64,000 bases of DNA from Eubacteriales bacterium (GCA_045649045.1 JAZRPF010000051.1:14471-78470), one strand, 5' to 3'; counted from the first letter of the stretch, positions 5,304 through 40,566 are shown. Notes: generated by a model from the sequence alone, not told the origin. Made by a program: numbers and translations.

Positions 5304-5374
5304 TGTAATTTCCTCCGAAATTGAATTTTTGTTTTTTATTTTGTCCGATATCCATCGGGGAGACGCTTTGTTTT

Positions 5375-5650: not shown

Positions 5651-5653
5651 AAA

Positions 5654-5929: not shown

Positions 5930-5953
5930 TGTGCTTTTTCTCCTTATATTCTT

Positions 5954-6298: not shown

Positions 6299-6319
6299 AG
6301 GATTCTCCTTTCGCACTCA

Positions 6320-7516: not shown

Positions 7517-7554
7517 ATAAATTCAGTTCCTTTCTAATAATGAGGACAGGCGCA

Positions 7555-9018: not shown

Positions 9019-9041
9019 ACTTAATTCCTCCCTTTCGGGCT

Positions 9042-9857: not shown

Positions 9858-9902
9858 GGTTATATATCCTTTCTGTTTTTATAAACTCTTGTAAATAATT
9901 GT

Positions 9903-11102: not shown

Positions 11103-11155
11103 AGATATCTCCCTTCTCATATTGTTTTGAAAATTTTATATGTATAAGGAATGGG

Positions 11156-11998
11156 TTATTCCTCAACACGCTTTGTTTGCAAGGAGGTTTCGTTTGCCGT
11201 ACCCGAGCCGAGTATGCGCGCCTCATTATGATACGCCACGCGAAAGCATAGCGCATCCACCACTGCAAGCCTTGCAATGTGTGAATTAAGCGCAAGCACC
11301 GTATGCCTCAATTCCTCCGTATCGGTCAAAAGCGTCACATCGCTATGTCTTGTAATCGGTGCGCGCTCCTTGCCTGTAATACAAATTGTAGAAACGCCGC
11401 GAGAGCGTGCTGCCTTTAACGCCTCTACGATATCCTTGGATGTGCCTGATTGCGAAACGCCAACTGCAACATCTCCCTCGCCCAGATAGGAAACGGCAAT
11501 CATCTGCATATGCGTATCCGAATAGGATGCCGCATTACAGCCCGCACGCAAAAGCTTATTTGCCGCCTCATCCGCCACCGCCGATGAGCTTCCAAGTCCC
11601 ACAAAAACAATTCGACCTGCATTTGCCAAAAGCTCCGCCGCCCTTTCAAGTGACTCACGGGAAATCGAGCGTTTGGTGCGTTCAAGTGAAAGGTAGGCAT
11701 CGTTGCACACCTTTTCAAGAATGTCATAGCAGCTGTCATCACTGTCAATATTGGGGGTAACGGTGCGATGCTCGGCATCGTGAGCAAGTGCGAGCTTCAA
11801 ATCCTGATAGCCACTGTAACCGAGCTTTCGCGAAAGGCGGACAATGGTCGCCTCGCTCGTGCCGCATTCAGCAGCAAAATCAACAATCGAAAGTGAAAGT
11901 ATTTCTTCGGTATGGGAAAGCAGGTAATCTGCAGCGAGGCGTTCGGCAGGCCCCATATCATCATAAAGAACCTGAACCTGCAAAAGCGCTCTGTTCAT
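11156..11998 (-). CDS. MurR/RpiR-family transcriptional regulator (HTH plus SIS sugar-phosphate-binding domain)
   Basis: Reads MNRALLQVQVLYDDMGPAERLAADYLL...SEATIVRLSRKLGYSGYQDLK, followed by the SIS pattern VFVGLGSSSAVA. It lies immediately upstream of ackA on the same strand. Confidence 0.85.
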   Translation of the reverse strand: MNRALLQVQVLYDDMGPAERLAADYLLSHTEEILSLSIVDFAAECGTSEATIVRLSRKLGYSGYQDLKLALAHDAEHRTVTPNIDSDDSCYDILEKVCNDAYLSLERTKRSISRESLERAAELLANAGRIVFVGLGSSSAVADEAANKLLRAGCNAASYSDTHMQMIAVSYLGEGDVAVGVSQSGTSKDIVEALKAARSRGVSTICITGKERAPITRHSDVTLLTDTEELRHTVLALNSHIARLAVVDALCFRVAYHNEARILGSGTANETSLQTKRVEE

Positions 11999-12360
11999 GC
12001 CGTTTTCTCCCTTCCCTTTCAAAACTTCTACTCCATAATTTATTTTACAACATCCCATGAAGTTTGTCAATAGTTTTCTGAAATTTTTTTACACTTTTCG
12101 CGGTTTTTTGTTTTTATTTTTCAAAAGATAATTAAAAATTTTTTCACTTATAATTTTTATGTCGCTTTCTGCATAGATATATACTTATAGGAAGATGTTT
12201 TGTTCAAAGCTCAGCTCTTCCCTGCCACAATTATTTGCAAGCTTTCGGGGAATCTTCGCGACAAATTTATCAAAATCCCTTTCATATCTTGCAATATACA
12301 AAAAGTCATGCTATAATAGAGCGGAAAGGAGAGCGACCTTGCTGTCGTCATGAAGATTAT

Positions 12361-23978: not shown

Positions 23979-24169
23979 CACAATACCGACCTCTTATTTA
24001 GAGGCTTTCCTTTCTTGTTCTGACAGAAGCGCTGCCGTTTATCATCAAAAGACTTTTCTGTCGTTTGTTTGCGCCGAGGTGGGTGCCTCAAACGCATCTG
24101 ACAGGCAATCATAAAACGCCTACAAGTATTATATCATGTCTTTCGTCATTTTGCAATACCTAATATGAA

Positions 24170-25015: not shown

Positions 25016-25141
25016 TTCATCACACTCCATATGTATTCATTCGAAGGAATTATATGTCAATACTCCTCTTTTTATATTATACACCTATTTACCTGTTTTG
25101 TAAAGCATTTTTGATGGAATATTTTATTTTAATGAAAAAAT

Positions 25142-25174
25142 GCGCCTCCAAAAGTCAGATGCTTTTGGAGGCGC
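25142..25174 (-). terminator. Intrinsic terminator, probably the native terminator of the PduL-like/NifU-like/GGGtGRT operon, now displaced by the inserted element
   Basis: GCGCCTCCAAAAG-(loop)-CTTTTGGAGGCGC, followed on the minus strand by ATTTTTTC. It lies about 40 nt downstream of the orphan gene end at 25214. Confidence 0.7.
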
Positions 25175-25213
25175 ATATCAACATCAATTTGTTTTTTGAT
25201 TTTTATATAAAAA

Positions 25214-25280
25214 TCACTTTGCAGTCTCTTCAATCGCAACGGCAACAGCAACCGTCATACCAACCATGGGGTTGTTACCT
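25214..25280 (-). pseudogene. Orphaned native 3' end of the GGGtGRT-family gene (last ~21 codons plus stop)
   Basis: The minus strand reads ...GNNPMVGMTVAVAVAIEETAK*. It matches the end of the intact gene at 34276.. (…GNNPMVGMTVAVAVAIEEASK*) over the 54-bp repeat and then diverges. Confidence 0.75.
25227..25280. repeat. att direct repeat, left copy
   Basis: TCTTCAATCGCAACGGCAACAGCAACCGTCATACCAACCATGGGGTTGTTACCT, identical to 34289-34342. Confidence 0.9.
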
Positions 25281-25295
25281 AAGTCATATATCCTT

Positions 25296-25447
25296 GTGGA
25301 TTGGTCTTAATTCGTCTTAATTTGAACGTATATGTTCAAGAACAACAGCTATATATCACGATGGCTTATCTGTATTTGTCTTAATTTGTTTCGATATGTT
25401 TTGATTAGGTTTTGAGAAAAGCGTGGATTTTTTGCGGATAAATCCAC
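25296..25447. repeat. Candidate integrase arm-type sites (GTGGATT(T)) and GTCTTAATT repeats near the left end
   Basis: GTGGATT at 25296-25302. GTGGATTT at 25423-25430 and its inverse AAATCCAC at 25440-25447. GTCTTAATT occurs three times between about 25304 and 25385. Confidence 0.6.
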
Positions 25448-25463
25448 CGATTTATACCGTGGC

Positions 25464-26771
25464 TTAATTACCCGCAAATATTGCATTTATGGCTTGCTTT
25501 CCCTCTGCTCTCATACTGTCGTCAAGGTGAATATATACGATTTTTGTTATTTTACAATCCTTATGTCCCAAACGCTCACTAATATACTTATCGGGCAACC
25601 GCGCGGAATACAGCATTGAAGCGTGAGTATGTCGCAAAGAGTGATATTTGAAGGCGGGGTATATATCCTTATGGATAACGCTTGATGTGTGCTGCATAGT
25701 GCGCAAAGAGATATAAGTCCCGTCTTTACGGACACACAAAAAGTTTATAGCATTTCCGTTTGCTGTTCGGTCTATGGGATTAGGTACGGCATTATCGGGA
25801 TTATTTACACCGCTAAAGGCAAGCGGATACGTGGCGTAATAGCTATTATAATATTCTCCATAATAGATTTTCATAGCTTCTTGCCGCCGTTTTTCCTCGC
25901 GGAGCAACCGCACCATACTGTCACTTAAATCTATCACTCTAAAGGAATTATATTTAGGGTTAGTGAAATACCAAAAGCCCTCACCGCTCTCTGCACTACC
26001 GTTATTTATAATCTTGTCGCTTTCACTTCGCGTTCCATCCTCTTGCCATTGGATTTGACGGTTCACGGTCAATGTTTTAGCTTCCAAGTCTATATCTTCC
26101 CACGTTAGCGCGAATGCTTCTCCAATACGCAACCCGCACTCATAGCCGAGCCGTAAAGGTATGTGAGAGGGGTGTGTTTCGGGAAACCGCTCCATAATGC
26201 TTTTGATAGCTGACGGCGGTATAGTATCTCTTGTGTCGGTACGGGTAGGTGTGACGGGTGTTCTGTTTCTCGGTATCTTTAACCGCACCGCAGGGGAAAA
26301 GAGTATGTAATGATTATCTACGGCGTAGTTAAAGCTCTTTGAGAGAATGCCCGTAAGACTTGATAATGTATTGATAGAATATCCTTTATCGTACATATCA
26401 AGAATAAATTTCTGCAAATCATCCTTTGATATTGCTTTTAACCGATAGCTACCAAGCGCGGGTTTAATATGATTTCGCACCCGCTTTTGATAGTTCAAAA
26501 TTGTTGCGGGTTTCAAATCCACCTTACAATCATTTTCCATCCATATGTCAAGAAAATCGGCATAGGATAGATCAGCAGATTGCAAGACTTGTCCCGTGTG
26601 TTCATATAGCTGTTGCGCCTTAATTCCTGCGCGTTTTGCTTCCGCTTTAGACTTAAATCCGCGCTTTGTGTACTGTTTGCGCTTTCCGTTTTCGGATGCG
26701 ATTTCAAATCTATATTCATAAGATATAGAGCCGTCTTTGAGTTCGTGTTTTCTTATATTGATGTCACCCAT
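25464..26771 (-). CDS. int: Tyrosine site-specific integrase with N-terminal arm-binding-type domain
   Basis: The C-terminal catalytic pattern is ...HSLRHTHASML...LGHKDCKITKIVYIHL. The basic N-terminus is GSISYEYRFEIASENGKRKQYTKRGFKSKAEAKRAG, as in Tn916-type integrases. Confidence 0.9.
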   Translation of the reverse strand: MGDINIRKHELKDGSISYEYRFEIASENGKRKQYTKRGFKSKAEAKRAGIKAQQLYEHTGQVLQSADLSYADFLDIWMENDCKVDLKPATILNYQKRVRNHIKPALGSYRLKAISKDDLQKFILDMYDKGYSINTLSSLTGILSKSFNYAVDNHYILFSPAVRLKIPRNRTPVTPTRTDTRDTIPPSAIKSIMERFPETHPSHIPLRLGYECGLRIGEAFALTWEDIDLEAKTLTVNRQIQWQEDGTRSESDKIINNGSAESGEGFWYFTNPKYNSFRVIDLSDSMVRLLREEKRRQEAMKIYYGEYYNSYYATYPLAFSGVNNPDNAVPNPIDRTANGNAINFLCVRKDGTYISLRTMQHTSSVIHKDIYPAFKYHSLRHTHASMLYSARLPDKYISERLGHKDCKITKIVYIHLDDSMRAEGKQAINAIFAGN

Positions 26772-26835
26772 AGGTATATCCTCGCTTTCTGCTGATAATT
26801 ATATCATAGCATTTTCTTGTTGCATACTTCAATTT

Positions 26836-27060
26836 TTATGATAATTGCAACTGACATACATTGCTCATATCCTTAAAACTGAAACCCGTATAGCTGTCGA
26901 TAAATTTGTCTATAGAAGCGTTTGATACCTTTAGTCCGCCCAAATCCAAAGCGGATAGAAAACCGTTTGTGATAAGCTCATATACCTTTGCTTTGCTTAC
27001 TCCTAAAAGCTTGCTTGTTTCTGTTACGTTGTATAATTTCTTTGCGTTGATTTCTGTCAT
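26836..27060 (-). CDS. xis: Excisionase-family helix-turn-helix DNA-binding protein
   Basis: LYNVTETSKLLGVSKAKVYELITNGFL is the MerR/excisionase-type HTH. It lies directly upstream of int. Confidence 0.7.
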   Translation of the reverse strand: MTEINAKKLYNVTETSKLLGVSKAKVYELITNGFLSALDLGGLKVSNASIDKFIDSYTGFSFKDMSNVCQLQLS

Positions 27061-27667
27061 ATAATAAATTCATTTCTCCTTAGTTATGTATGCCACTCTT
27101 GATGTAATCAAGATATTGTCCGTAGGACTTGAATGTTGACATTCAACCCATCGGTGAGAAATGAAATGGCTTGTTTTTGGTTAAAATTTGTTAATCTCTA
27201 TCCCTCTCGGAAAACCCTCGAATTATAGGGATGTTTGTTTGTTTTTTTTCCTAAAAAGTGGCTTTTTTTCGTTCTCAGAAACGCTCTCAGTAAACTTGCC
27301 TCTAATAGGGTGTTTTTCGCACTTTTACCCCCTAAAAAACGCCGTTTTTAGTTGTTCTATTTTGTTTTTTCTATGGAGAGTGAAATGCGGTGGTATTTTC
27401 TCCATTTTCCACGCTTGTGTATCGTCGTGGTGGGATACGACGAACACGGCGCGAACCGCGCTCTTGGCTCGGTGTGCCACATAGATAGTAAAGAACTCGT
27501 CTGTGTAATAGACTTGAATACTGCCGTATAATTGAGCGGATTGTGTACATCATTCCGTTTCACAAAATGCAAGTTAAGCTGAGCTATGACCGCTACGGAA
27601 ACACCGAACAGTAGACAGGTATCTATTTCAGCCAAGCGATTATCTCAGTCATAAAGTGCAAGTAATC

Positions 27668-28597
27668 TTAATCTATGCAAAATACGCCCAAGACCTCTAC
27701 TTTTGAGTAGTCGCTACCGCTATAGAGGATATGTGGATTTATGATGATTTTTGCCCCTGCTTTGTGTATCCCATCATAAGCAATGGCACAAAACCGCTCC
27801 AAATGACCGTCAACATCAAACAAAATGCTGTTGTATATTTTCAAAAGCTTGTTAACGTGCGCTACATCGTAGCCGACCATTTCGCAAAAATCCGCTACAG
27901 ATATTAACTCAATCTTGTTTATATCCGTTTCCAAAGGGTTGCGACATATCAAGTTGTATTCGATGTTGATATACGGTAACAGCTTGAACAGATAACCTAA
28001 CTGACGGTCATTCTTTCTTGCTGAGGTAGTATATAATCTGCGGATACCCTCAATATAAAACTTTTGGTGTGCTTTTGTTCGTTGTGCCAAACGCCCACGC
28101 TTGAATATATCGTTGTTTGCAAATATCAATCCGTCCGCTTGCTCGGTTAAATAAATGGGACAAACCTCTTTCAAGAAACGTGATACCGTAGAAGCCGATA
28201 CCCCCAACAATGCGGGCAAGTCTGCGCTTTTGATAGGTGTTCTTTCGCTGAACATCAATTTGTTTTCGTAATTCATATACGTATTGAGATATACAAGGCG
28301 CGTTAAGCTTTCGGGGGAAATGTTTGACAACGGAGCTTGCTTTTTTACAAAGTAAAAGTATCCCAAAGGATCGTTGCACCCTCTCTGCAATCCGCGCAAC
28401 ATTTTTGCTTCTTCAAGTTGTCGTTCAAGCTCTTTTCTCCTTTTGTATTCCTCTTGCTGTTCGGGGGTGTATGTGATACTCCCGACGGGAACGATTGTAG
28501 CTACTGTATCTAATACCGCGCCCGTAGCTCGTTGAACCGCTAATATTTTTCCCGTATATTCTTCCATTACATAGTCATAACCTTTTGCTTCAGTCAT
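27668..28597 (-). CDS. Hypothetical protein, possible replication initiator or winged-helix protein of the element
   Basis: 309-aa ORF with an AAAGGAG RBS and an internal HTH-like segment (LPALLGVSASTVSRFLKEV). The functional call rests on position only. Confidence 0.4.
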   Translation of the reverse strand: MTEAKGYDYVMEEYTGKILAVQRATGAVLDTVATIVPVGSITYTPEQQEEYKRRKELERQLEEAKMLRGLQRGCNDPLGYFYFVKKQAPLSNISPESLTRLVYLNTYMNYENKLMFSERTPIKSADLPALLGVSASTVSRFLKEVCPIYLTEQADGLIFANNDIFKRGRLAQRTKAHQKFYIEGIRRLYTTSARKNDRQLGYLFKLLPYINIEYNLICRNPLETDINKIELISVADFCEMVGYDVAHVNKLLKIYNSILFDVDGHLERFCAIAYDGIHKAGAKIIINPHILYSGSDYSKVEVLGVFCID

Positions 28598-28686
28598 TAA
28601 AAACTCCTTTATAAAATTATGGTTTGATATGCCCTAAAAATATGCTCGTGAGTGGGGCATTTCAATCAAGAGCATTGACGGGGATA

Positions 28687-28884
28687 TTAGTTATCCTCGT
28701 CTTGCTCCGTGCGTTTTTCGGCGTGTGAGTGGCTATTTTCACCGCCTACGCCCGCACGATGCGGGTTCTTACCCATTCTAAAAGGGTACAACGCGCATTG
28801 AAAGCACGTGCACAAACGTACCTCTTTTGGTTGGTCGCAACAGCAATCAAGACAATGCTGTCTTATAGCTTGCATAGGTGTCAT
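28687..28884 (-). CDS. Small Cys-rich (zinc-ribbon-like) protein
   Basis: MTPMQAIRQHCLDCCCDQPKEVRLCTCFQCALYPFRMGKNPHR is a pattern common in phage and ICE accessory regions. Confidence 0.5.
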   Translation of the reverse strand: MTPMQAIRQHCLDCCCDQPKEVRLCTCFQCALYPFRMGKNPHRAGVGGENSHSHAEKRTEQDEDN

Positions 28885-29155
28885 ACCGTCGGTATCTCCT
28901 TTCCGTAATACTCACGGAATATTAAGTAGGTGACGGCAACTGCATAAACGACAAAAAGCGGGTATGCACCTTAAAAAGATATAGCTATCACTATACTTAA
29001 AAGGTATGCACACCCGCTATCAGCAAGGTTATGATATTCCTACTATGAGCAGGAATATGTAAAAACTCAATGCACACTATTCCATTATATCAATTATTAT
29101 ACCACACTTTAACATACTTGTCAATAGGTTTTTGAAAATTTCTCAAAAATATTTT

Positions 29156-29350
29156 TTATTCCTCGCTCTGACTTAACAGCAGATCAATGGCGCGGTTAAT
29201 AAAGGCGTTTACACTCTCCCCGTTCTCTGTGGCGCGTTGCTGTATAAGTTCCTTTTTGCCCTTCTTCACCATAAGGTTAATTCTGTCATACGCGCCCTTG
29301 TTATAATCGTTGTTGTAGCTGATAGTTTTTGCTTTATCCTTATATGCCAT
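29156..29350 (-). CDS. Ribbon-helix-helix (Arc/CopG-like) DNA-binding protein
   Basis: MAYKDKAKTISYNNDYNKGAYDRINLMVKKGKKELIQQRATENGESVNAFINRAIDLLL. The start at 29350 has an AAAGGAGA RBS. Confidence 0.6.
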   Translation of the reverse strand: MAYKDKAKTISYNNDYNKGAYDRINLMVKKGKKELIQQRATENGESVNAFINRAIDLLLSQSEE

Positions 29351-29489
29351 ATCGGTATCTCCTTTTATATCCGTGTGAGTGAAAAGGAACGACACACCTA
29401 AAAACACAGACGGCGTATTTTTCCACGGTGTAAAATATTCCGTCCTCTCGGTTGTGTGCTCTGTTTCTTTTTTATTATATCACAAGTCG

Positions 29490-29580
29490 GAACATTGTGC
29501 AATGTACAAAATGCACAAAAATTCGCAGAAGAACATTGTGCAATGTGCCGATTGACTTCCATTGCTCAATGTGCTATAAT
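29490..29580 (+). promoter_or_regulatory. Promoter (TTGACT 29552-29557, TATAAT 29575-29580) with three ACATTG-nn-CAATGT operator palindromes
   Basis: GAACATTGTGCAATGT occurs at 29490-29505 and again at 29531-29546. A degenerate copy, CCATTGCTCAATGTGC at 29559-29574, lies between the -35 and -10 elements. Confidence 0.6.
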
Positions 29581-29636
29581 GGTATCACAACGGGACGGAC
29601 ACCGCCCCGAATATAAAAGACAAAGGAGATAGAAAA

Positions 29637-29912
29637 ATGTCAGTAAACGAAATGGAAACAAAAATTGCAAGGTTGCAGGAATGGGAAGCAATCGCAGAGG
29701 AAGCAAGAGCAGAAGCGGAAGCGTTAAAGGATGAAATCAAAGCCGAAATGCTCTCCCGCGATACTGAGGAAATGGAAGCGGGGCGTTTCATCATCCGTTG
29801 GACTTCGGTACTTTCTAACCGCTTCGACACTACAAGCTTCAAAAAGGAACACGGCGACCTTTACAAGCTCTATACCAAGCAATCCGCAAGCCGTCGTTTC
29901 AGTATTGCATAA
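29637..29912 (+). CDS. Hypothetical coiled-coil protein of the element
   Basis: 91-aa ORF with an AAAGGAGA RBS. An N-terminal coiled coil (IARLQEWEAIAEEARAEAEALKDEIKAEM) is followed by FIIRWTSVLSNRFDTTSFKKEHGDLY. Confidence 0.5.
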   Translation: MSVNEMETKIARLQEWEAIAEEARAEAEALKDEIKAEMLSRDTEEMEAGRFIIRWTSVLSNRFDTTSFKKEHGDLYKLYTKQSASRRFSIA

Positions 29913-30054
29913 GAAAAAGCCCTTTACAAAAGCCACCGACCAAAGCGACAACGTAAAGAGCTTACCCACCCCCATCACGGAGCGGGTACATATATTATAA
30001 CGTATCCGCTCCTAAAAATCAACATCAAAATTATTGAATTTAGGAGAATTTACA

Positions 30055-30711
30055 ATGAAACAAATAACCAATATGTCCCGCCTTGTCAATCAGCTTGAAA
30101 AGTGCTTCCGTTTGCTCAATCAAGATTTTTTCAACGGCGAGCTTCCAACCCCGATTATTACAGTAATACCCACGCCCAAAGCATACGCCCACTACGTTCC
30201 ATATGATATATGGGATACAAAAGACGATAGCAAGCGCGAGATAAACATAGCAAGCGGAACACTCAACCGCCCGCTTGAAAATGTCATTGCTTCCTTACTG
30301 CACGAAATGGTGCATATGTACAACGATTGTATTCTCAATATCCAAGATACAAGCCGAAACGGTACATATCACAACCGCCAATTTGCCAAACAAGCAGAAG
30401 CACACGGGCTTATTGTTACCCGTTCTGAGAAATACGGATACGCGCACACCGCACCCGCCGACAGTTTGCTTGAATGGGTACTTAATCACGATGAGTTGCG
30501 CGAGATCGAAATTTGCCGTTCTAACCCCTTTTATAACGCCGTAGGAATAGGCACACACGCAAGCAACGGCGGGGCTATATCAACGACCACCGCAAACAAG
30601 AACAGCCACAGCCGACATTATATCTGTCCCTGCTGTCATACCATTGTGCGAGCTACAAAGGTAGTCAACATCATATGCGGGGATTGTATGGAGCGTATGG
30701 AAGAACGCTGA
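30055..30711 (+). CDS. SprT-like zinc metalloprotease domain protein with C-terminal zinc ribbon
   Basis: Carries the HExxH motif LLHEMVHMYN and a C-terminal CPCCHTIVRATKVVNIICGDC. RBS AGGAGA. Confidence 0.75.
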   Translation: MKQITNMSRLVNQLEKCFRLLNQDFFNGELPTPIITVIPTPKAYAHYVPYDIWDTKDDSKREINIASGTLNRPLENVIASLLHEMVHMYNDCILNIQDTSRNGTYHNRQFAKQAEAHGLIVTRSEKYGYAHTAPADSLLEWVLNHDELREIEICRSNPFYNAVGIGTHASNGGAISTTTANKNSHSRHYICPCCHTIVRATKVVNIICGDCMERMEER

Positions 30712-30718
30712 CACAGAC

Positions 30719-30746
30719 GGCGGGGAGAAATCCCCGCCACGTTTTT
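30719..30746 (+). terminator. Intrinsic terminator after the SprT-like gene
   Basis: GGCGGGGA-gaaa-TCCCCGCC followed by ACGTTTTT. Confidence 0.75.
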
Positions 30747-30915
30747 GAAGTTAACATTACAAAAAAATCAAGAGGGGGGATATCGCGCCCTCTCTGTACC
30801 AAAACAGCCCTATCAATATGCAGTATCAAAAGTGCTCGGTAAACTGCTCAAAATGCAGTTTGCCGACAGTACGAAAAGAACCGAAGGAAAGTTTTGCGAC
30901 AAAGGAGATTGAAAA

Positions 30916-31593
30916 ATGAAACAATACGGTTATGCACGTATCAGTACACATAAACAACGAATTGAAAGACAGCTACGCAACATCAAAGCGGAATATCCCT
31001 CAGCGGTCATTTTACAAGACGAATACACGGGAACAAAGCTCTCCCGCCCGTCGTGGGACAAGCTGATGAAGGTTATTAAAGACGGTGATATGATTATTTT
31101 TGATTCTGTATCCCGTATGTCAAGAAATGCTGAGGAAGGGTTTGCGGTATATGAAGCCTTATACAACCGAGGTATAGAGCTTATATTTCTTAAAGAGCCT
31201 CACATAAACACCCAAACATATAAAAAGGCAGTACAGAGCTCCGTGCCAATGACGGGAACGGCGGTCGATTACATCTTAGAGGGTATCAATAAATATCTGT
31301 TAGAGCTTGCTAAAGAGCAAATACGCCTTGCATTTGAGCAAGCGGAAAAAGAGGTTGAGGATTTGCACCAACGTACAAAAGAGGGGCTTATAACCGCCCG
31401 CTTGAATGGTAAACAGATAGGCATACCAAAAGGAACAAAGCTCACGACAAAAAAGAGCGTATCCGCAAAAGAAATCATACGCACTCACTCTAAGGATTTT
31501 GGCGGTACGCTGACAGACACGGAATGTATCAAGCTCGCGGGCATATCGCGTAATAGTTTCTATAAGTACAAGGCAGAGCTACGGGACGAATAA
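30916..31593 (+). CDS. Serine recombinase (resolvase/invertase family)
   Basis: MKQYGYARISTHKQRIERQ... contains the catalytic Ser context. It also has DSVSRMSRN and a C-terminal HTH (GISRNSFYKYK). Confidence 0.9.
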   Translation: MKQYGYARISTHKQRIERQLRNIKAEYPSAVILQDEYTGTKLSRPSWDKLMKVIKDGDMIIFDSVSRMSRNAEEGFAVYEALYNRGIELIFLKEPHINTQTYKKAVQSSVPMTGTAVDYILEGINKYLLELAKEQIRLAFEQAEKEVEDLHQRTKEGLITARLNGKQIGIPKGTKLTTKKSVSAKEIIRTHSKDFGGTLTDTECIKLAGISRNSFYKYKAELRDE

Positions 31594-31596
31594 GAA

Positions 31597-31620
31597 AAGG
31601 GGGATTTCGTCCCCCTTTAG
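31597..31620. terminator. Bidirectional terminator between the recombinase and the convergent GLUG gene
   Basis: AAGGGGGA-tttcg-TCCCCCTT with flanking A/T runs. Confidence 0.75.
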
Positions 31621-31626
31621 TATAGA

Positions 31627-33819
31627 TCACTTTAGTATTGGATATTCTCCGTCAGTCAAAGCCCAAACCGAATCATCCCAAGAAATAATATCTTTATGAA
31701 ATGAAATTGTTTTTATTATTTCCATAGATTTTGCTTGACCAAGTGAATTGGTCGGTTCGGTAGAGTGCTTATCTTTAATGTCAATACTAAAAGATTGATT
31801 TTCATAATAATAACAATTGGCGACAGTTCCGTTGTTGTTATTTCCTACTATTGCACCTGCATTTCCCAGCCAATTCTCCGTAGACAAAAAGATATTACAA
31901 ACAGCGTAACAATTCGCAACGACACTATAATTGCATCCAATCAATCCGCCTACATAAGCAATATCGGATTCAACGTATATATCTCCAATAGCATAACTGT
32001 TGTGTACTCCCCCCTTGCTGTAACCTACCAAGCCGCCACTATATCCACCGCAAGTGGAGTTGGAAACAACCGTACCTTTAGCATAGCAATTCCTAACGGT
32101 TCCATTTCCCGCAATTCCTTCGTGATAGCCTATTAAACCACCAACATAACTTCCATATGAATATTCATTTTGGCTTGTGCTTGTTGCGCTTATATAACCT
32201 GTTGCGTAACATTCGCTTATATCACCTACAGAATTATATGCAACTAATCCACCTGCATAACTATTACTAAATGAGGGAGAAAAACTATATGCTGTTACGT
32301 TACCCGTAGCATAGGAGTTTGATATTTTTCCATCATTATAACCTACAAGCCCTCCAGCATAGCTATAAGAATCAATCATATCATAATCTCCACCAAGAAC
32401 AGTTCCTATACTTGTAGCCGTTGTTGAGCCTGTTGCATAGCAATCTACAATGTGCCCATTATTTAGTTGAATTGTGGTTGTATTATTATACCCTATAAAT
32501 CCACCTACATAGCTGTAACTATCTTTGGTTTGATTGCTTGAATTGGTGGTAGAAGTTACATCGCCACTTGCGTAGCAATTCTCGTAATAGCCACCATTAT
32601 TATAGCCTACAAATCCACCTGCATAACAAAAGCCGTGTTCTTTCTTTGAACTAAATCCGACAACAGAGATTCTTCCCGAAGCAGAACTGTTTGAAAGTAC
32701 AAGATAATTACGAACATCTCCTATCAATCCACCCGCAATACATTCTTTACCCGATTCAGTTATACTTATATTTACAGAGGCAGAGCAGTTCGAGACTGTT
32801 TCTTCTTCGAATACACGCCCAACTAACCCGCCGACATAATTGCAATCATATCCCGAAATTTGGATCGAGCCTGAGGCATAACAATTTTGGAGTATTCCAT
32901 TTCGATGAATACCGAGTAGTCCACCTGCATATATAGTTGTTCCATCAGTTGCACTAACATTTATTGAAAAATTGTCCAGAATTAAATTTTGAATAGTGGA
33001 GCTGTTACTATATCCAAAGAACCCTATATATTTTGAAGGAGCGGTAATCTTAAAATTATACACTCTATGCCCATTACCATCAAACACCCCTGTAAAACAA
33101 TATGTGTTCGATGTTCCGATAGGTTTCCACTCCGCACCACCCAAATCAATATCCGAAGTCAAAACATAATTACCGTTCATTGAAATGTTTTTCAATTCTT
33201 GTGCTGTGGAAATGGTGGTATATGGATAATAGCAATGTGAACACCAATTATCTTTTATGCTATGTTCAGTTTTTTTTATTATTTCTTGCTTAATTATTAC
33301 CGTATTACACACAAAACAACGGCTTCCTTCGGTTAAGCCCGTTTGAGTACAAGAAGCTTCTACGGCAGAATCAATAACTACGGTATGTTCCTTTTTAATT
33401 ACTATTTCTTGTTCTACCAAAACAGCGTTGCAAACAGAGCAATGGCGACCTTCGGTCTTTCCCGATTCTTGACACGTTGCTTCTATCGCGCTATCTATTA
33501 CAATGGTATGTTCAAGTTTATTTATGGTATCGGTTTGTTTGGTATCGCATTTAGAGCAACTGCGCTCTTTTGTGCCTTCTTTTTCACACGTTGCGGTTGA
33601 TATTGTTACCCATTCACCAAAGCTATGTGTGCACACTGTTGGTGTATCATCCGTAGTTGGTGTATCATCAGTAGTCGGCGTATTGTCTGTTACGGGATTA
33701 TTCGTCTGTTGGTTAGTCGTATTGTTGTCTGTATCTATAGGGGGATTATCTGTATTATCACACGCAACTAACACAAATAACAATAGTATGATACAAAGAA
33801 TAGGCAGTATTTTTCTCAT
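31627..33819 (-). CDS. Surface lipoprotein with Cys3-His repeat modules and about ten GLUG-motif repeats
   Basis: The start MRKILPILCIILLLFVLVACDN (lipobox, GGAGGT RBS) is at 33819. It contains a TPTTDD low-complexity stretch, three C-x-C...H modules, and then repeated Y(A/V)GG(L/F)(V/I)G GLUG-type units. Confidence 0.75.
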   Translation of the reverse strand: MRKILPILCIILLLFVLVACDNTDNPPIDTDNNTTNQQTNNPVTDNTPTTDDTPTTDDTPTVCTHSFGEWVTISTATCEKEGTKERSCSKCDTKQTDTINKLEHTIVIDSAIEATCQESGKTEGRHCSVCNAVLVEQEIVIKKEHTVVIDSAVEASCTQTGLTEGSRCFVCNTVIIKQEIIKKTEHSIKDNWCSHCYYPYTTISTAQELKNISMNGNYVLTSDIDLGGAEWKPIGTSNTYCFTGVFDGNGHRVYNFKITAPSKYIGFFGYSNSSTIQNLILDNFSINVSATDGTTIYAGGLLGIHRNGILQNCYASGSIQISGYDCNYVGGLVGRVFEEETVSNCSASVNISITESGKECIAGGLIGDVRNYLVLSNSSASGRISVVGFSSKKEHGFCYAGGFVGYNNGGYYENCYASGDVTSTTNSSNQTKDSYSYVGGFIGYNNTTTIQLNNGHIVDCYATGSTTATSIGTVLGGDYDMIDSYSYAGGLVGYNDGKISNSYATGNVTAYSFSPSFSNSYAGGLVAYNSVGDISECYATGYISATSTSQNEYSYGSYVGGLIGYHEGIAGNGTVRNCYAKGTVVSNSTCGGYSGGLVGYSKGGVHNSYAIGDIYVESDIAYVGGLIGCNYSVVANCYAVCNIFLSTENWLGNAGAIVGNNNNGTVANCYYYENQSFSIDIKDKHSTEPTNSLGQAKSMEIIKTISFHKDIISWDDSVWALTDGEYPILK

Positions 33820-34091
33820 ATTTACCTCCAAATAAAAAGGGTGTGACCTCAATAGAAGTCGCACCCGAAAAACGCAAACTCCTATTGTTGCCACACAATT
33901 TATCAACAAATAAGGATTACTCTCCGTATTCATCAGCGGAATTTGCATTTTTACCAAATTCAAACTGACAAATAGGCAAAAAGGGTATACTTACAAAACC
34001 CTCTATAAAAATAGAGAGCTCACCTTGTGAAAGAATGTTGATTAAATTATGTGGCAGTTACAATTATATCATAAAAACAGCGTTTTGTCAA
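33820..34091 (-). promoter_or_regulatory. Consensus promoter plus ~235-nt structured leader with intrinsic terminator (copy 1 of a conserved leader RNA)
   Basis: All elements below are on the minus strand.
- Promoter: TTGACA (34091-34086), 17-nt spacer, TATAAT (34068-34063).
- P1: GCCACATAATTT (34055-34044) pairs with AAATTGTGTGGC (33901-33890).
- Hairpin: GAATTT-GGTAAAAATGC-AAATTC (33961-33939).
- Terminator: GGGTGCGAC...GTCACACCC plus TTTTTATTT (33866-33830), ending directly before the RBS. Confidence 0.65.
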
Positions 34092-34137
34092 TCCGTTACG
34101 GCAGATTTGAAGGGTGTGGGCGGGATTTGAAAAGAAA

Positions 34138-34193
34138 AAATCCACAGTTTAATCCGCTGTGGATTTTACGTGGATTTTCTGGCTCGTGGATTT
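34138..34193. repeat. Candidate integrase arm-type sites near the right end of the element
   Basis: AAATCCAC at 34138-34145. GTGGATTT at 34159-34166, 34170-34177 and 34186-34193. The same octamer occurs near the left end. Confidence 0.6.
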
Positions 34194-34275
34194 TTCTTTG
34201 TATGGAAAAAGGGCTCTCGATTTGCACCGAAAGCCCTAAAAAATATGATTTTTTGATCTAAAATGAGGTTTTTTC

Positions 34276-35283
34276 TTACTTCGAAGCTTCTTCAATCGCA
34301 ACGGCAACAGCAACCGTCATACCAACCATGGGGTTGTTACCTGCGCCGATGAGACCCATCATCTCAACATGAGCGGGAACAGAAGAGGAGCCTGCGAACT
34401 GTGCATCACCGTGCATACGGCCCATGGAGTCGGTCAAGCCGTAAGAAGCGGGGCCTGCTGCCATGTTATCGGGATGCAGGGTACGGCCCGTACCGCCGCC
34501 CGATGCAACCGAGAAGTACTTTTTACCTGTCTCATAGGACCACTTCTTATAAGTGCCTGCGACCAAATGCTGAAAACGAGTCGGGTTGGTGGAGTTACCT
34601 GTAATCGAAACATCAACACCCTCATGCTTCATGATGGCAACGCCTTCCAGAACATCGTTTGCACCGTAGCAACGAACCTTTGCCTTCTCACCGTCGGAAT
34701 AAGGAACGGTGCGGACAACAGTCAATTCATCTGTATAGAAATCATAGGAGGTTTCAACATAGGTAAAGCCGTTGATACGGGAAATGATGTACGCGGCGTC
34801 CTTGCCAAGACCGTTCAAAATGATTTGGAGAGGCTCTTTACGAACACGGTTTGCCTTCTTTGCAATACCGATCGCGCCCTCTGCTGCTGCAAAGGACTCA
34901 TGACCTGCAAGGAAGCAGAAGCACTTTGTCTCTTCGCGGAGGAGCATTGCTGCCAGATTACCGTGGCCGAGACCAACCTTACGGGTTTCAGCAACAGAGC
35001 CGGGGATGCAGAATGCCTGCAAGCCAATACCGATAGCTTCAGCAGCCTCTGCTGCGGTGGTGATACCCTTCTTAATGGCAATCGCACAACCGAGCGTATA
35101 TGCCCAGCTTGCGTTATCGAAAGCGATGGGCTGAACACCCTTTACGATTTCATCTACATTAATGCCTCTTTTTGCGCAAATATCGCGAGCGTCCTCAAGG
35201 TCAGCGATGCCGTACTCTGCCATGCAAGCCTTGATTTTTTCAATTCTTCTTTCGTATCCTTCAAATTTTACATTGTTCGACAT
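34276..35283 (-). CDS. GGGtGRT-family protein (function unknown)
   Basis: Contains the eponymous motif ...FSVASGGGTGRTLHPDNMAAGPASYG.... The start at 35283 has a GGGAGGA RBS. Its last codons are supplied by the inserted element. Confidence 0.8.
   Translation of the reverse strand: MSNNVKFEGYERRIEKIKACMAEYGIADLEDARDICAKRGINVDEIVKGVQPIAFDNASWAYTLGCAIAIKKGITTAAEAAEAIGIGLQAFCIPGSVAETRKVGLGHGNLAAMLLREETKCFCFLAGHESFAAAEGAIGIAKKANRVRKEPLQIILNGLGKDAAYIISRINGFTYVETSYDFYTDELTVVRTVPYSDGEKAKVRCYGANDVLEGVAIMKHEGVDVSITGNSTNPTRFQHLVAGTYKKWSYETGKKYFSVASGGGTGRTLHPDNMAAGPASYGLTDSMGRMHGDAQFAGSSSVPAHVEMMGLIGAGNNPMVGMTVAVAVAIEEASK
34289..34342. repeat. att direct repeat, right copy (inside the 3' end of the GGGtGRT gene)
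   Basis: Identical over 54 bp to 25227-25280. Confidence 0.9.
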
Positions 35284-35300
35284 GTTCACTATCCTCCCTA

Positions 35301-36011
35301 TCATTCTTCGCGGGGGTCGATGTACTTCACGGCACCGTCGGCTTCGGAATATCTACCGTAGGTCTTGATGTTTGCCTCATATGCTTCCTTGGGGTCTGTA
35401 CCCTTGCGGATGGCCTCCATCATCTTGCCGAGATGTACAAAGCGATAACCGATGACTTCACTATTCTTATCAAGTGCCAGATTCAGAATGTAACCTTCAG
35501 CCATCTCAAGATAACGAACACCCTTCTTCTTGGTTGCGAAAATGGTACCGACTTGCGAACGGAGTCCCTTACCGAGATCCTCAAGCGATGCGCCGACAGG
35601 AAGTCCGTTTTCGGAGAAAGCGGTCTGCGAACGGCCGTAAGCGAGCTGCTTGAAGATTTCACGCATTGCCACATTGATAGCATCGCAAACAAGGTCTGTA
35701 TTGAGAGCTTCGAGCAAGGTCTTGCCCTGAAGAATCTCGCCTGCCATAGCAGCGGAGTGTGTCATACCGGAGCATCCGCAGGTCTCAACAAGAGCCTCCT
35801 CGATGATACCTTGCTTCACATTCAAGGTCAGCTTGCACATACCCTGCTGGGGTGCGCACCAGCCAATACCGTGCGAAAGACCTGAAATGTCCTTGATCTC
35901 ATAAACCTTCACCCACTGGCCTTCTTCAGGAATGGGAGCGGGACCGTGATGAGGGCCCTTGGCAATAGGACACATACTTTCTACTTCGTGGGAATAGAGA
36001 ATTTCACTCAT
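35301..36011 (-). CDS. NifU/IscU-N-terminal-like Fe-S scaffold-like protein (function unknown in this context)
   Basis: Contains ...GIGWCAPQQGMCKLTLNVKQGIIEEALVETCGCSGMTHSAAMAGEILQGKTLLEAL.... RBS AAAGGAGA. The stop is 18 nt upstream of the ATG of the next gene, with the GGGAGGA RBS in between. Confidence 0.65.
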   Translation of the reverse strand: MSEILYSHEVESMCPIAKGPHHGPAPIPEEGQWVKVYEIKDISGLSHGIGWCAPQQGMCKLTLNVKQGIIEEALVETCGCSGMTHSAAMAGEILQGKTLLEALNTDLVCDAINVAMREIFKQLAYGRSQTAFSENGLPVGASLEDLGKGLRSQVGTIFATKKKGVRYLEMAEGYILNLALDKNSEVIGYRFVHLGKMMEAIRKGTDPKEAYEANIKTYGRYSEADGAVKYIDPREE

Positions 36012-36039
36012 TTTTTTGTCTCCTTTACAGTTTTCGCTG

Positions 36040-36606
36040 TCAGTCAGCGATAATTTCGCCCTCGGTTACACCGAAAGCGGCATTGGATTCATCTGTATCA
36101 ATATGCATTGCAGGGGCAAAATTTTTGTTGACACGCACAACCACATCATCAAAGATAAGCGGACGGTTACCGTTCAGCTTGACCTTGACAATCTGCTTAT
36201 CTGTTACGCCAAATTCAGCAGCAGCCTCGGGTGTCAGATGAATGTGTCTTTTTGCTGCAATCACGCCCTCGGCAAGTGTGACCTCACCGCAAGGACCGAC
36301 CAATTTACAGCCTGCGCTACCTACAACATCACCGCTCTCACGAATGGGTGCAGACACACCGATCGAGCGCGCATCGGTCAAGGACAGTTCAACCTGTGAT
36401 GCAGGGCGGGCAGGGCCAAGGATGCTGACGCCTGCAAGCTCTTTCTTTGAGCCGACAACCGTGACGCGCTCTTCGCACGCAAACTGTCCGGGCTGGCTCA
36501 AATCCTTTTTCTTTGTTAACACATATCCCTCTCCAAAGAGAATATTGATGTGTTCTTCCGTCAAATGAACATGACGGGCAGAAGTTTCCACCATGACTTT
36601 TTTCAT
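36040..36606 (-). CDS. PduL-type phosphotransacylase without encapsulation peptide
   Basis: Reads MKKVMVETSARHVHLTEEHINILFGEGY... and IAAKRHIHLTPEAAAEFG (duplicated PduL motif). It starts directly with the catalytic domain, unlike 4177..4830. Confidence 0.85.
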   Translation of the reverse strand: MKKVMVETSARHVHLTEEHINILFGEGYVLTKKKDLSQPGQFACEERVTVVGSKKELAGVSILGPARPASQVELSLTDARSIGVSAPIRESGDVVGSAGCKLVGPCGEVTLAEGVIAAKRHIHLTPEAAAEFGVTDKQIVKVKLNGNRPLIFDDVVVRVNKNFAPAMHIDTDESNAAFGVTEGEIIAD

Positions 36607-36739
36607 TTTAGTGTCTCCTTATGATTTCTATGTACTACCAATTTAGTATTATACCATAACTTTTTTTATTTGTAAATGAGTAGATGCAAATATTTCGGCA
36701 AAAACTAAAGAAAATTTACAAAAAGGAAGAAGGTTTTTC

Positions 36740-37477
36740 ATGAATTCACAGAATCCAACCGCAAACAGTGAGCTAACCGCCATGAATCCCAAACACCCCT
36801 ACGCCATCTCGCTGACCGAAAGCATCGACCTTATTGCGAGAAACGGCACTATGCCCTATGAAACAGCGAGCGGGCTTTACTACTGCATCAGCATTATCGG
36901 TCAGATCGAAGGGCATATGCTTTCAGAGCAAACGCAGAAGGTCACAAAATACGACCACCTGATGCCGCTTCTTGTACGGCTTGAAGCAGACCCGCGCATT
37001 CGCGGCGTGCTTTTCCTTTTGAACACGCTTGGCGGTGATGTCGAAGCAGGACTTGCGATTGCAGAGCTCGTTGCCTCTATGCGCACACCGACAGTCTCTC
37101 TCGTTCTGGGTGGCGGCCATTCTATCGGCATTCCACTTGCTGTATCTGCCGACTATTCCATGATTGTGCCGAGTGCCACCATGACTCTTCATCCTGTTCG
37201 CACTGGCGGCACGGTTATCACCTCACCGCAAGCATTTGATTACCTGCTCAAAATGCAGGGGCGCATCCTTGATTTTATTGCCGCGCATTCAAAGGCAGAG
37301 CGTGAGGATCTGCACCGCCGTATGATGCGTACCGACCAGCTTGCCAACGATATCGGCTCGGTTTTGAACGGGCATGATGCGGTTGATTGCGGTCTTATTG
37401 ACCGTGTAGGCGGTCTATCGGACGCGATGCGTGCACTTGAAGAACACGCTGAAAAGGCTCTTGAAAATCAAGCATGA
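36740..37477 (+). CDS. ClpP/TepA-family serine protease-like protein
   Basis: Contains IIGQIEGH...RGVLFLLNTLGGDVEAGLAIAELV...LGGGHSIGIPLAVSAD. Confidence 0.7.
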   Translation: MNSQNPTANSELTAMNPKHPYAISLTESIDLIARNGTMPYETASGLYYCISIIGQIEGHMLSEQTQKVTKYDHLMPLLVRLEADPRIRGVLFLLNTLGGDVEAGLAIAELVASMRTPTVSLVLGGGHSIGIPLAVSADYSMIVPSATMTLHPVRTGGTVITSPQAFDYLLKMQGRILDFIAAHSKAEREDLHRRMMRTDQLANDIGSVLNGHDAVDCGLIDRVGGLSDAMRALEEHAEKALENQA

Positions 37478-38537: not shown

Positions 38538-39293
38538 TCAGTTAGCGGCGTCAACAATGGCTGTAAACTTATCGGTCTTCAAGGAAGCACCGCCAATCAA
38601 GCCACCGTCAACATTCTCGCAGGCAAGAAGCTCACAAGCATTGGCATCGTTCATAGAACCGCCATATTGAATAATCATTTCCTCGGCAGCCTTTGCGCTA
38701 TAAAGCTTTCCAATGACGCGGCGAATGATGCCGCAAGCCTCGTCCGCCTGTGCAGGCGTTGCAGTAAGTCCAGTACCGATTGCCCAAACAGGCTCGTATG
38801 CAATGATGATATTCTGAAGGTCAGCCTCGGGAATGCCTGCAAAGTCAAGCTTGGTTTGCATAGAAACAATTTCCTCTGTGATTCCTGCCTGACGCGCTTC
38901 AAGAAGCTCGCCCAAGCAAAGAATGACCTTCAAGCCTGCTGCGAGAGCAGCCTTGGTGCGCAGATTGACGGTTTCGTCGGTTTCAGCAAAATACTGACGG
39001 CGTTCACTGTGACCGATAATGACATACTCCGTGCCGATTTCCTTCAGCATTGCGGCAGAAACCTCGCCTGTATAAGCGCCGTTTTCCTTGAAGTGCACAT
39101 TCTGAGCACCGATTTTGATGTTTGTGCCCTTTGCAGCCTCAATGGCTGTGGCAACATCGACAAAGGGAACGCAAAGAACGATGTCGCACGCGTCCTTTCC
39201 TTCGACCATCGGTGCAAGCTCTTTGATAAATGCTTTTGTTTGTGCAGGTGTCATGTTCATCTTCCAGTTACCTGCAATGACATATCTTCTCAT
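38538..39293 (-). CDS. tpiA: Triose-phosphate isomerase
   Basis: Contains AGNWKMN...IIGHSERR...AYEPVWAIGTG. Confidence 0.95.
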   Translation of the reverse strand: MRRYVIAGNWKMNMTPAQTKAFIKELAPMVEGKDACDIVLCVPFVDVATAIEAAKGTNIKIGAQNVHFKENGAYTGEVSAAMLKEIGTEYVIIGHSERRQYFAETDETVNLRTKAALAAGLKVILCLGELLEARQAGITEEIVSMQTKLDFAGIPEADLQNIIIAYEPVWAIGTGLTATPAQADEACGIIRRVIGKLYSAKAAEEMIIQYGGSMNDANACELLACENVDGGLIGGASLKTDKFTAIVDAAN

Positions 39294-39363: not shown

Positions 39364-40566
39364 TTATTTATCCTGCAAGCAAGCGATGCCGGGAAGCTCA
39401 AGACCTTCAAGGAACTCAAGTGATGCGCCGCCACCTGTGGAAATGTGGGTAATACGAGGTGCAAAGCCAAGCTGCTCGCAGGCCGCAGCAGAGTCACCGC
39501 CACCAACGATAGTGGTAGCATCGCTTTCAGCAAGTGCGCGTGCAACGGCGATAGTACCCTCAGCCAAGGTCGGATTCTCAAACACGCCCATAGGACCGTT
39601 CCAAACGACAGTTTTTGCGTTCTTTGCGGCATCGGCGAAGAGCTTTCTTGTTTCTGTACCGATATCAAGTCCCATCTTATCAGCAGGAATCTTGTCGGAT
39701 TGGCAAATTGTCACATCGACAGGTGCATCAATGGGATCGGGAAAAGCGCCTGCAACAACAGTGTCGATCGGGAGCAGGAGCTTCACGCCCTTCTCCTCTG
39801 CCTTCTTCATCATATCGCGGCAATAATCAACCTTTTCGGCATCAAAAAGCGAGGTACCAATCTGGTAGCCCTTCGCTGCAAGGAAGGTATATGCCATACC
39901 GCCGCCGATAATCAGGGTGTCAACCTTTGTCAGAAGGTTATCAATAACCTTCAGTTTGTCCGCAACCTTTGCACCGCCGAGAATTGCAACAAAAGGACGG
40001 GCGGGGTCAGCCAGAGCCTTACCCATAATGCCGATTTCCTTCTGAATCAGATAGCCGCAAACAGCAGGCAAGTAGTCTGCAACGCCTGCAGTGGACGCGT
40101 GTGCGCGGTGAGCTGTACCAAATGCATCGTTCACATAAAGCTCTGCAAGCGAAGCAAGCTCACGGGAAAATTCAGGGTCGTTCTTCTCCTCGCGCTTATC
40201 AAAGCGAACATTCTCAAGCAAGATGACCTCGCCGTCCTTAAGAGCGGCTGCCTTCGCCTTTGCATCCTCGCCGATAATATCAGCAGTCAAGGGAACATTC
40301 ACACCGAGAAGCTCGGAAAGACGGGCGGCTACTGCGACGAGAGAATACTTCGGATTGACCTCGCCCTTGGGCTTACCCATATGGGAGCAGAGGATGACGC
40401 GTGCGCCCTCGGCCATCAGATACTTGATGGTCGGCAGTGCCTCAACAATACGCTTATCGCTTGTGATGCGGCCTTCTTTTTGAGGGACATTGAAGTCGCA
40501 ACGGACAAGAACTCTCTTACCCTTCACTTCGATGTCTTCAATGGTTTTCTTGTTATACATGGACAT
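39364..40566 (-). CDS. pgk: Phosphoglycerate kinase
   Basis: Contains VRCDFNVP...[11 protein letters not shown]...[14 protein letters not shown]...[13 protein letters not shown]. Confidence 0.95.

Follow-up and report, generated by a model that had tools for sequence, protein, structure and literature searches.

Here, we present a computational analysis of a three-gene operon in a 64,000-nt stretch of DNA from an Eubacteriales bacterium (GCA_045649045.1 JAZRPF010000051.1:14471-78470; hereafter the window), which encodes a phosphotransacylase of the PduL type, a NifU-like protein, and a protein of the GGGtGRT family. The genes of the last two stay together as a bicistronic module in practically every case, and pduL is placed before this pair only in a few lineages of the Oscillospirales type. 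Tentatively, and with somewhat less than even confidence, we propose that the pair constitutes a two-subunit iron-sulfur (Fe-S) enzyme of the fermentative trunk, with both the contact between the two proteins and the cluster being inferred. The pair probably belongs to the trunk leading from glycolysis to acetate rather than to acyl-CoA chemistry specifically. The bolder version of this proposal is unlikely, namely that the pair is an unrecognised Fe-S enzyme of central carbon metabolism in anaerobes whose IscU-fold domain holds a catalytic or redox cluster permanently and which acts on a phosphorylated C3 intermediate of glycolysis.

Two samples of loci were compared, 80 from GTDB species representatives and 80 from metagenomes, each comprising the best 80 of about 600 matches and not a random draw (L and P numbers are our labels for loci and proteins). 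Wherever there was room to judge, the NifU-like gene lies directly upstream of the GGGtGRT gene on the same strand (76 of 76 GTDB and 67 of 67 metagenome loci, i.e. 143 of 143). The GTDB taxa carrying the pair include Clostridia, Collinsella and Eggerthellaceae, Gastranaerophilales, Elusimicrobiales, Bacteroidaceae, and a gammaproteobacterial metagenome-assembled genome (MAG); the two genes also stand together at every locus of a divergent clade described below and in one archaeal MAG. In contrast, PduL is encoded within 8 kb of the pair at 7 of 80 GTDB loci and at 0 of 80 metagenome loci. Its gene lies upstream of the pair in L006, L007, L029, L033, and L061, directly downstream in L009, and 2 kb downstream in L015, so that at least two arrangements exist. 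A relative with 92% identity (L001-3) shows the same arrangement as the window, including a divergent ClpP-like gene. Classical Pta, which is not homologous to PduL, is encoded within 1.2-4 kb of the pair in L048 and L172.

A Pfam tally of the two closest genes to either side at 63 non-redundant loci revealed no recurrent third partner (SecA 5, TyrRS 4, flavodiiron proteins 3-4, integrases 4, PTA_PTB 1). Likewise, no conserved third operon partner was found at these loci, as the tightly spaced neighbours on the same strand differ in every lineage. The effective number of codons (Nc) of the pair genes, 41.7 and 43.5, is close to that of the glycolytic genes pgk (43.4) and tpiA (44.2) of the window, and the codon bias of pduL is weaker (Nc 50.8). 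From the linkage at all 143 loci, compared with the sparse occurrence of PduL, it follows that the pair is the conserved unit and PduL a lineage-specific addition. A preliminary description of the window had regarded all three genes as one operon of common function. The signals of co-transcription given below are in line with the operon, but the functional unit is the pair. It had also proposed a check of gene neighbourhoods for the trio beyond this genome, and there the trio does recur, namely in L001-3 and in the loci with an upstream pduL, but it is rare and limited to few lineages. Its deduction of acyl-CoA or acyl-phosphate chemistry for the pair is not upheld, because it rests on a neighbour found at so few loci, and the independent genomic context is that of phosphoglycerate and glycolysis.

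In the window, the three open reading frames (ORFs) span 36606-34276 on the minus strand and comprise pduL (36040-36606, 188 aa, PF06130), coding for a PduL without encapsulation peptide (EP), the NifU-like gene (35301-36011, 236 aa), and the GGGtGRT gene (34276-35283, 335 aa, PF14057). The close packing described earlier was confirmed by ORF calling and sequence reading, with gaps of 28 nt behind pduL and 17 nt behind the NifU-like gene and with ribosome-binding sites (RBS) AAGGAG, AAGGAG, and GGGAGG, in gene order, located 7-9 nt before the starts. An in-frame alternative ATG of the GGGtGRT gene at 35304, further upstream, would overlap the stop codon of the NifU-like gene; the start at 35283 is favoured because the RBS fits and homologues begin at or after this ATG. 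A sigma-70-type promoter upstream of pduL (36648-36676, minus strand; TTTACA-17-TATAAT with the TG of an extended -10 region, 11 of 12 matches) is the sole strong minus-strand promoter within 34300-36900, and no minus-strand terminator was detected inside the three-gene unit. From the single promoter, the tight spacing, and the lack of an internal terminator, one transcription unit is predicted for the three genes. The present stop codon of the GGGtGRT gene is followed by a terminator-like hairpin (34210-34237, minus strand; 12-bp stem and T run), which was probably supplied by an integrated element.

The promoter-proximal sequence ATTTGCAT(C/T)TA(C/A)TCATTTACAAA (window 36640-36700) is common to the window and L061, whose GGGtGRT protein is only 75% identical. 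It may represent a conserved regulatory element and was not seen in other lineages. A palindrome or operator shared across 63 upstream regions was not found, and the window contains no riboswitch or other Rfam element, the sole Rfam match being one tRNA. Divergently from pduL, a gene for a ClpP/S49-like serine peptidase is located at 36740-37477 on the plus strand and occupies the same position in L001, L006, and L061.

The GGGtGRT protein matches Pfam family PF14057 over profile positions 1-327 of 327 (E 2e-194, 645 bits). Among 170 distinct sequences from across phyla, identity to the window protein has a median of 74% and a minimum of 50%, invariance is 98.5% or higher at 108 of 335 positions, and the GGGTGRT motif (residues 262-268) is invariant throughout. 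The invariant positions include no Cys and many Gly, Ser, Thr, Asn, Arg, Lys, His, Asp, and Glu. In a search of 1.84 billion representatives at 50% identity, essentially one full-length cluster was retrieved together with the divergent P0147 (52-53% identity), and the remaining matches were fragments or chimeras. The codon bias of the gene is the second-strongest among 46 window genes. Recent papers from 2024-2025 still give the function as unknown (PMC11204068, PMC12078515), in agreement with the earlier remark that the family has no assigned biochemistry.

No significant relative of the GGGtGRT protein was found in the PDB by sequence or profile, where only insignificant matches to guanylate cyclase and to a crotonase motif appeared, and Foldseek returned no PDB match at E <= 1e-3. 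Matches of the CODH, TIM, PFK, and LacI types (E 0.02-0.6, template modelling (TM) score about 0.2-0.3) were discarded as generic alpha/beta noise. Hydro-lyases of the aconitase, SdaA, FumA, and IlvD types gave no Pfam or NCBIfam match even at E <= 10, and exact-sequence look-ups of the window protein and P0002 returned no record. The AlphaFold2 (AF2) model consists of a helical N-terminal domain and an alpha/beta domain (predicted TM score 0.80), with a predicted local distance difference test (pLDDT) value above 90 for the less conserved N-terminal half and below 50 for residues 230-302, the most conserved stretch (GNSTNPTRFQH ... GGGTGRT ... GRMH). Apparent Rosetta-stone fusions (P0001, P0121-P0129, P0144, and others) were rejected as uninformative, since each is either an internal duplication or joins abruptly to gyrase, GuaA, IMPDH, aspartokinase, or the like. 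Further duplicated or chimeric "long" proteins are present in public clusters (P0006, P0018, P0195, P0202, P0209). Such proteins are probably cross-species mis-assemblies of metagenomes, which arise because the gene is highly conserved at the nucleotide level, and they call for caution in the mining of domain architectures from public collections.

The NifU-like protein combines an IscU-fold domain (about residues 44-124) with a family-specific C-terminal domain. It scores just under the Pfam cut-off for NifU_N (PF01592; 21.6 vs 22 bits) and below the NCBIfam cut-offs for TIGR01999 (25.6 vs 187.9), TIGR03419 (22 vs 192.4), and TIGR01994 (17.6 vs 92.5 bits). A profile of 40 homologues matches IscU in the PDB only over residues ~46-121 (E 6e-5). 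The AF2 model, of low confidence with a pLDDT of 49, matches IscU/ISCU in Foldseek over about 100 residues (root-mean-square deviation 2.5-3.2 A, TM score normalised to the target 0.5-0.57, E 2e-4 to 4e-3). Behind this core come about 110 family-specific residues; residues 126-173 among them are also conserved and have pLDDT values below 50, as is the case for residues 230-302 of GGGtGRT.

The IscU/NifU-like cysteine pattern noticed in the preliminary description, CAP(52)...C59...CGC(78,80)SGMTHS, is present. All 133 distinct sequences, drawn from every sampled lineage, retain C52, C59, C80, and C109, and C14 is conserved in the main clade only. C80 is the equivalent of IscU Cys63, and C109 stands at the start of the last helix like IscU Cys106, in a segment left unaligned by HMMER. 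The protein has in common with the IscU/NifU-N scaffolds (PF01592, TIGR01999) a core of beta-sheet and helices, the cysteine of the GC(S/G) motif, and the cysteine opening the last helix. It differs from them in the "CGD" register of Cys37/Asp39, where the Cys37 column holds Q56 and cysteines stand instead at -4 and +3 (C52 and C59). Further differences are the LPPVK chaperone-docking motif, which is absent from the sequence, the segment between the GKT..EAL helix and C109, which is ~11-14 residues shorter than in IscU, the constant company of GGGtGRT, and the scores below the curated cut-offs. A neighbouring desulfurase is lacking as well: no aminotransferase class V family is among the recurrent neighbours at the 63 non-redundant loci, and only Collinsella has sufS ~3 kb away in another operon. 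Judged by sequence and model, the NifU-like protein appears to be a remodelled IscU. Because the Cys37/Asp39 register and LPPVK are missing and an all-Cys set is present, we infer a fixed, all-Cys cluster rather than the transient cluster of a scaffold.

The phosphotransacylase matches PF06130 (PTAC) over its full length (E 5.5e-81, 271 bits vs a cut-off of 25) and NCBIfam PRK15070 with 262 bits (cut-off 209). It aligns without gaps to chain 5cuo_A of rPduL (PDB 5CUO/5CUP), the only solved PduL, and H12, H14, E73, H121, H123, and H168 align with rPduL His48, His50, Glu109, His157, His159, and His204. In rPduL, the first three residues are the ligands of Zn1 and the last three those of Zn2 (PMC4784909). 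The metal-binding histidines, on which the earlier assignment had been made to depend, are therefore all in place, and with six conserved ligands the window PduL is predicted to be catalytically intact. Its start directly at the catalytic domain, also described before, was corroborated: an upstream stop codon bounds the ORF, so that no N-terminal extension or EP is possible. The PduL of the bacterial microcompartment (BMC; 4177-4830) is 53% identical, and as its residue 36 aligns with residue 9 of the operon protein, it has about 27 additional N-terminal residues. The operon protein falls outside the BMC-targeted subgroup (BMC_EutD_Gpos, 259 bits vs a cut-off of 315). In contrast to rPduL, it lacks an EP and is encoded outside a BMC locus, and the BMC of the window has its own PduL. 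The BMC-type locus itself occupies window positions 1-12100 and contains this second, EP-bearing PduL. PduLs without EP have been suggested to replace Pta in the Pta-Ack pathway (PMC4784909), and by analogy the operon PduL is probably a housekeeping substitute for Pta.

Clues to the function of the pair come from genomic context and from published expression data. A divergent GGGtGRT clade (P0147, P0391-P0407; L085-L096), 50-57% identical to the main family, retains the NifU-like partner with 55% identity (loci e.g. L085:5997-10606, L091:391-6859, L095:842-6141). All five distinct contexts of this clade carry a cofactor-independent phosphoglycerate mutase (PGM) of the ApgM type (NF003104, 517 bits vs a cut-off of 489) together with a His_Phos_1 enzyme (dPGM/phosphatase superfamily), in shuffled gene orders, and a bacterial GpmI is found in one and a HAD phosphatase in another. 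These contexts also share a conserved membrane-anchored transmembrane protein of ~320 aa, for which no Pfam or NCBIfam match was obtained, and in most of them a helix-turn-helix regulator is encoded. A phage origin of the clade was considered and dropped, as P0403 has no relative in IMG/VR. In the main clade, the gene order is gap-pgk-tpiA-gpmI-yezG-NifU-like-GGGtGRT in L065 (1333-8999) and gap-pgk-tpiA-secG-x-GTPase-NifU-like-GGGtGRT in L157 (1256-8993). Operons of the Bacillus type carry eno after gpmI, at the position taken by the pair in L065. In the window, pgk (39364-40566) and tpiA (38538-39293) lie 2-4 kb upstream of the operon on the same strand, with no gap gene. Hence, in the window and in two unrelated loci the pair is located a few kb downstream of (gap-)pgk-tpiA and co-oriented with it.

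The B. thetaiotaomicron pair (BT0173-74) drops 11-13-fold under iron depletion (PMC10434189), and the pair of C. pasteurianum (F502_05012/05017) goes up with iron (PMC5395762). In several phyla, both proteins reach high abundance and expression in vivo (PMC11204068, PMC7035244). An unbiased forward screen for loss of the glucose repression of Cur in B. thetaiotaomicron yielded only pfkA, mdpA, and BT0173-4, and mdpA controls pyruvate kinase (bioRxiv 10.64898/2026.04.10.717545).

According to our proposal, the NifU-like and GGGtGRT proteins would form one heteromeric Fe-S protein. The IscU-derived subunit would carry a permanent cluster on C52, C59, C80, and C109, with neither hand-off through LPPVK nor a desulfurase partner. 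The Cys-free GGGtGRT protein, presumed to be the large or substrate-binding subunit, would supply the substrate site from its invariant loops GNST, GGGTGRT, and AGSSSVPAH, which are rich in Gly, Ser, Thr, Arg, and His and look like phosphate-binding loops. The enzyme would be a highly expressed, iron-dependent part of the trunk by which anaerobic fermenters convert triose phosphate to acetate, and the EP-free PduL would serve as cytosolic phosphotransacetylase of the same trunk, co-expressed with the pair and not mechanistically coupled to it. As substrate we consider a phosphorylated C3 acid at the node of phosphoglycerate mutase and enolase, e.g. for an Fe-S (de)hydratase or lyase acting on 2- or 3-phosphoglycerate or a close derivative, an assignment that is unlikely as it stands.

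Several observations weigh against this proposal. The association with PGM is limited to a small divergent clade that possibly uses another substrate, and the pair of the main clade usually stands alone with no conserved neighbour at the sampled loci. Proximity to gap/pgk was seen at 3 of ~161 loci, compared with ~0.9 expected within +/-8 kb; the expectation falls to ~0.2 if the same strand and a downstream position are required, a criterion chosen post hoc. The effect of BT0173-4 in the screen is modest, being 2-fold and not accompanied by a growth defect on glucose (bioRxiv 10.64898/2026.04.10.717545). No resemblance of GGGtGRT to dehydratases or glycolytic enzymes was detected by sequence or fold. 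Finally, AF2 fails on the ~70 most conserved residues of GGGtGRT (pLDDT <50), which would be expected if this stretch folds only against a partner or cofactor.

Four other explanations have to be weighed. That the trio forms a single pathway, in which the pair makes or consumes an acyl-CoA or acyl-phosphate interconverted by PduL, is decidedly unlikely. The predicted co-transcription in the window, the adjacency of pduL upstream of the pair in the relatives listed above and its downstream position in L009 and L015, the Pta genes of L048 and L172, and a weak, non-significant likeness of VASGGGTGRTLHPD..AAGPASYGLTD to the oxyanion-hole motif of crotonases (E 0.48) would fit such a pathway. However, 73 of the 80 GTDB loci and all 80 metagenome loci lack PduL, among them those of most close relatives (80-86% identity), the codon bias of pduL is unlike that of the pair, and the Pta cases are convergent or distant. 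Moreover, EP-free PduLs are thought to be housekeeping Pta substitutes (PMC4784909), which explains co-expression in the absence of coupling. A redox enzyme for oxygen or nitrosative stress, comparable to rubrerythrin, flavodiiron protein, or hybrid-cluster protein, is improbable. Genes of the flavodiiron type (Lactamase_B/ODP and flavodoxin) lie upstream in 3-4 loci, a rubredoxin adjoins the archaeal pair, weak Foldseek matches to the CODH/HCP family exist (E 0.1-0.5, TM ~0.25), and the pair is down-regulated along with hcp in B. thetaiotaomicron and co-listed with rubrerythrins among highly expressed proteins (PMC11204068). Each of these signals is weak or no better than chance, the loci yielded no regulator or operator typical of a stress regulon, and the contexts with PGM and the gap operon would be left unexplained.

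The homology and fold of IscU would also suit a module for the biogenesis, storage, or repair of Fe-S clusters, with the NifU-like protein as scaffold or carrier and GGGtGRT as accessory; this is unlikely, though in keeping with the dispensability of the pair in B. thetaiotaomicron in vitro. Iron starvation usually induces Fe-S assembly systems, and the 12-fold repression of the B. thetaiotaomicron pair counts against such a role. The pair of Collinsella is found ~1.7-6 kb downstream of sufCBDS, but an opposite-strand transposase-like gene separates the two, and this proximity within a single genus was rejected as evidence of Suf linkage. Across ~125 non-redundant loci no cysteine desulfurase is adjacent, the cysteine set departs from that of a scaffold as described above, and scores are ~160 bits under the IscU/NifU equivalog cut-offs. 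The iron-responsive expression (PMC10434189, PMC5395762) is a further point in favour of the module. A sulfur-transfer or thiolation enzyme, e.g. one delivering sulfide or persulfide into a phosphorylated amino-acid precursor or cofactor with the IscU-like subunit as sulfur carrier, appears very doubtful. Cysteine synthase and O-acetylhomoserine sulfhydrylase shift in concert with the pair in a rumen metaproteome (PMC7035244). Genes next to the pair of the divergent clade belong to the two families that include phosphoserine phosphatases, namely His_Phos_1/PspA-like (90 bits) and HAD, but the His_Phos_1 matches are far under all equivalog cut-offs. The IscU and SufU folds do accept persulfide sulfur; on the other hand, no desulfurase, rhodanese, or pyridoxal phosphate enzyme is consistently near the pair at the sampled loci, and an abundance like that of glycolytic enzymes would be unusual for a sulfur-transfer enzyme.

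The 3' end of the GGGtGRT gene in the window is also the attachment site of a mobile element. A 65-nt direct repeat, identical over a core of 52 nt, is present at 25216-25280 and 34278-34342, bracketing ~9.06 kb, and both copies encode GGGtGRT C-termini, which end in EEASK and EETAK before the stop codon. The gene-proximal copy (34278-34342) forms the attachment junction inside the last 21 codons of the gene and encodes GNNPMVGMTVAVAVAIEEASK and the stop. The distal copy represents a displaced alternative 3' end (25214-25280), encoding GNNPMVGMTVAVAVAIEETAK and the stop. It is followed by a strong intrinsic terminator (25140-25176, minus strand; 15-bp stem with 8 GC pairs and a T run), probably the native terminator of the operon. 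The integrated element of ~9 kb (25281-34277) has a lower GC content (0.37-0.44) and contains a tyrosine integrase next to the distal repeat (25464-26771, minus strand), ORFs of phage families, a DNA invertase (30916-31593), an SprT-like protein, and a GLUG-repeat surface protein (31627-33963, minus strand) with 29-nt periodic repeats at 31837-32627. A phage origin of the element was rejected, as INPHARED gave no match. The GC content of the whole window stretch from 12 to 34 kb is below that of the flanks, and a second large repeat-rich surface protein with LRR_5, MucBP, and DUF6273 domains is encoded at 22308-23981 on the minus strand.

Integrases lie directly downstream of GGGtGRT at 4 of 63 loci, and those checked (L008:9108-10043, L061:3440-4384) are XerC/D-like. 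Second copies of the GGGtGRT 3' end occur 0.1-4.7 kb downstream in six other loci (L029, L031, L033, L035, L041, L084). The earlier remark that the gene end serves as an attachment site is therefore correct and general. The ultra-conserved GGGtGRT 3' end is a recurrent integration hot spot in Clostridia, apparently used by more than one type of integrase.

The protein families and the pair itself are already catalogued. In the literature searched, we found no description of the PduL-headed operon, the universal linkage of the pair in both samples and in the divergent clade, the assignment of the cluster ligands, the presence of PGM genes around the divergent clade, or the attachment hot spot, which appear to be new. 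GGGtGRT and its NifU-like partner keep ~74% identity from one bacterial phylum to another, are strongly iron-regulated, have no solved structure or detectable relatives, and belong to the proteins with high in vivo expression in Bacteroides, Clostridia, Negativicutes, and others. The analysis redefines the unit as a pair instead of a trio and locates the likely cluster ligands. Three independent context clues, i.e. the PGM-rich clusters of the divergent clade, the adjacency to gap-pgk-tpiA(-gpmI), and the lineage-specific recruitment of a phosphotransacetylase gene, together with the B. thetaiotaomicron screen narrow the function to a short list of assayable substrates. If the bolder version is true, for example with the pair as an Fe-S analogue of enolase or of a phosphoglycerate-converting step, textbook accounts of glycolysis and fermentation would lack a component that ranks with the most conserved and abundant proteins in the gut microbiota.

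Among known systems, the two-subunit Fe-S hydro-lyases such as L-serine dehydratase (SdaAB/SdaAA) and class I fumarase offer an analogy, as they have tandem genes for a small and a large subunit, depend on oxygen and iron conditions, are abundant in fermenters, and are redundant with isozymes devoid of Fe-S clusters. The pair differs from them in that no sequence or fold similarity was detected, and cluster ligands on an IscU fold are, to our knowledge, unprecedented among these enzymes. Closer counterparts are BT0173-BT0174 and F502_05012/F502_05017, from which the window differs by the PduL in front and the element at the 3' end, neither of which is reported there. In the two counterparts, as in the window, genes of both families are adjacent; there they are co-regulated and iron-dependent in abundance (PMC10434189, PMC5395762), and the GGGtGRT proteins are ~74-78% identical across these phyla.

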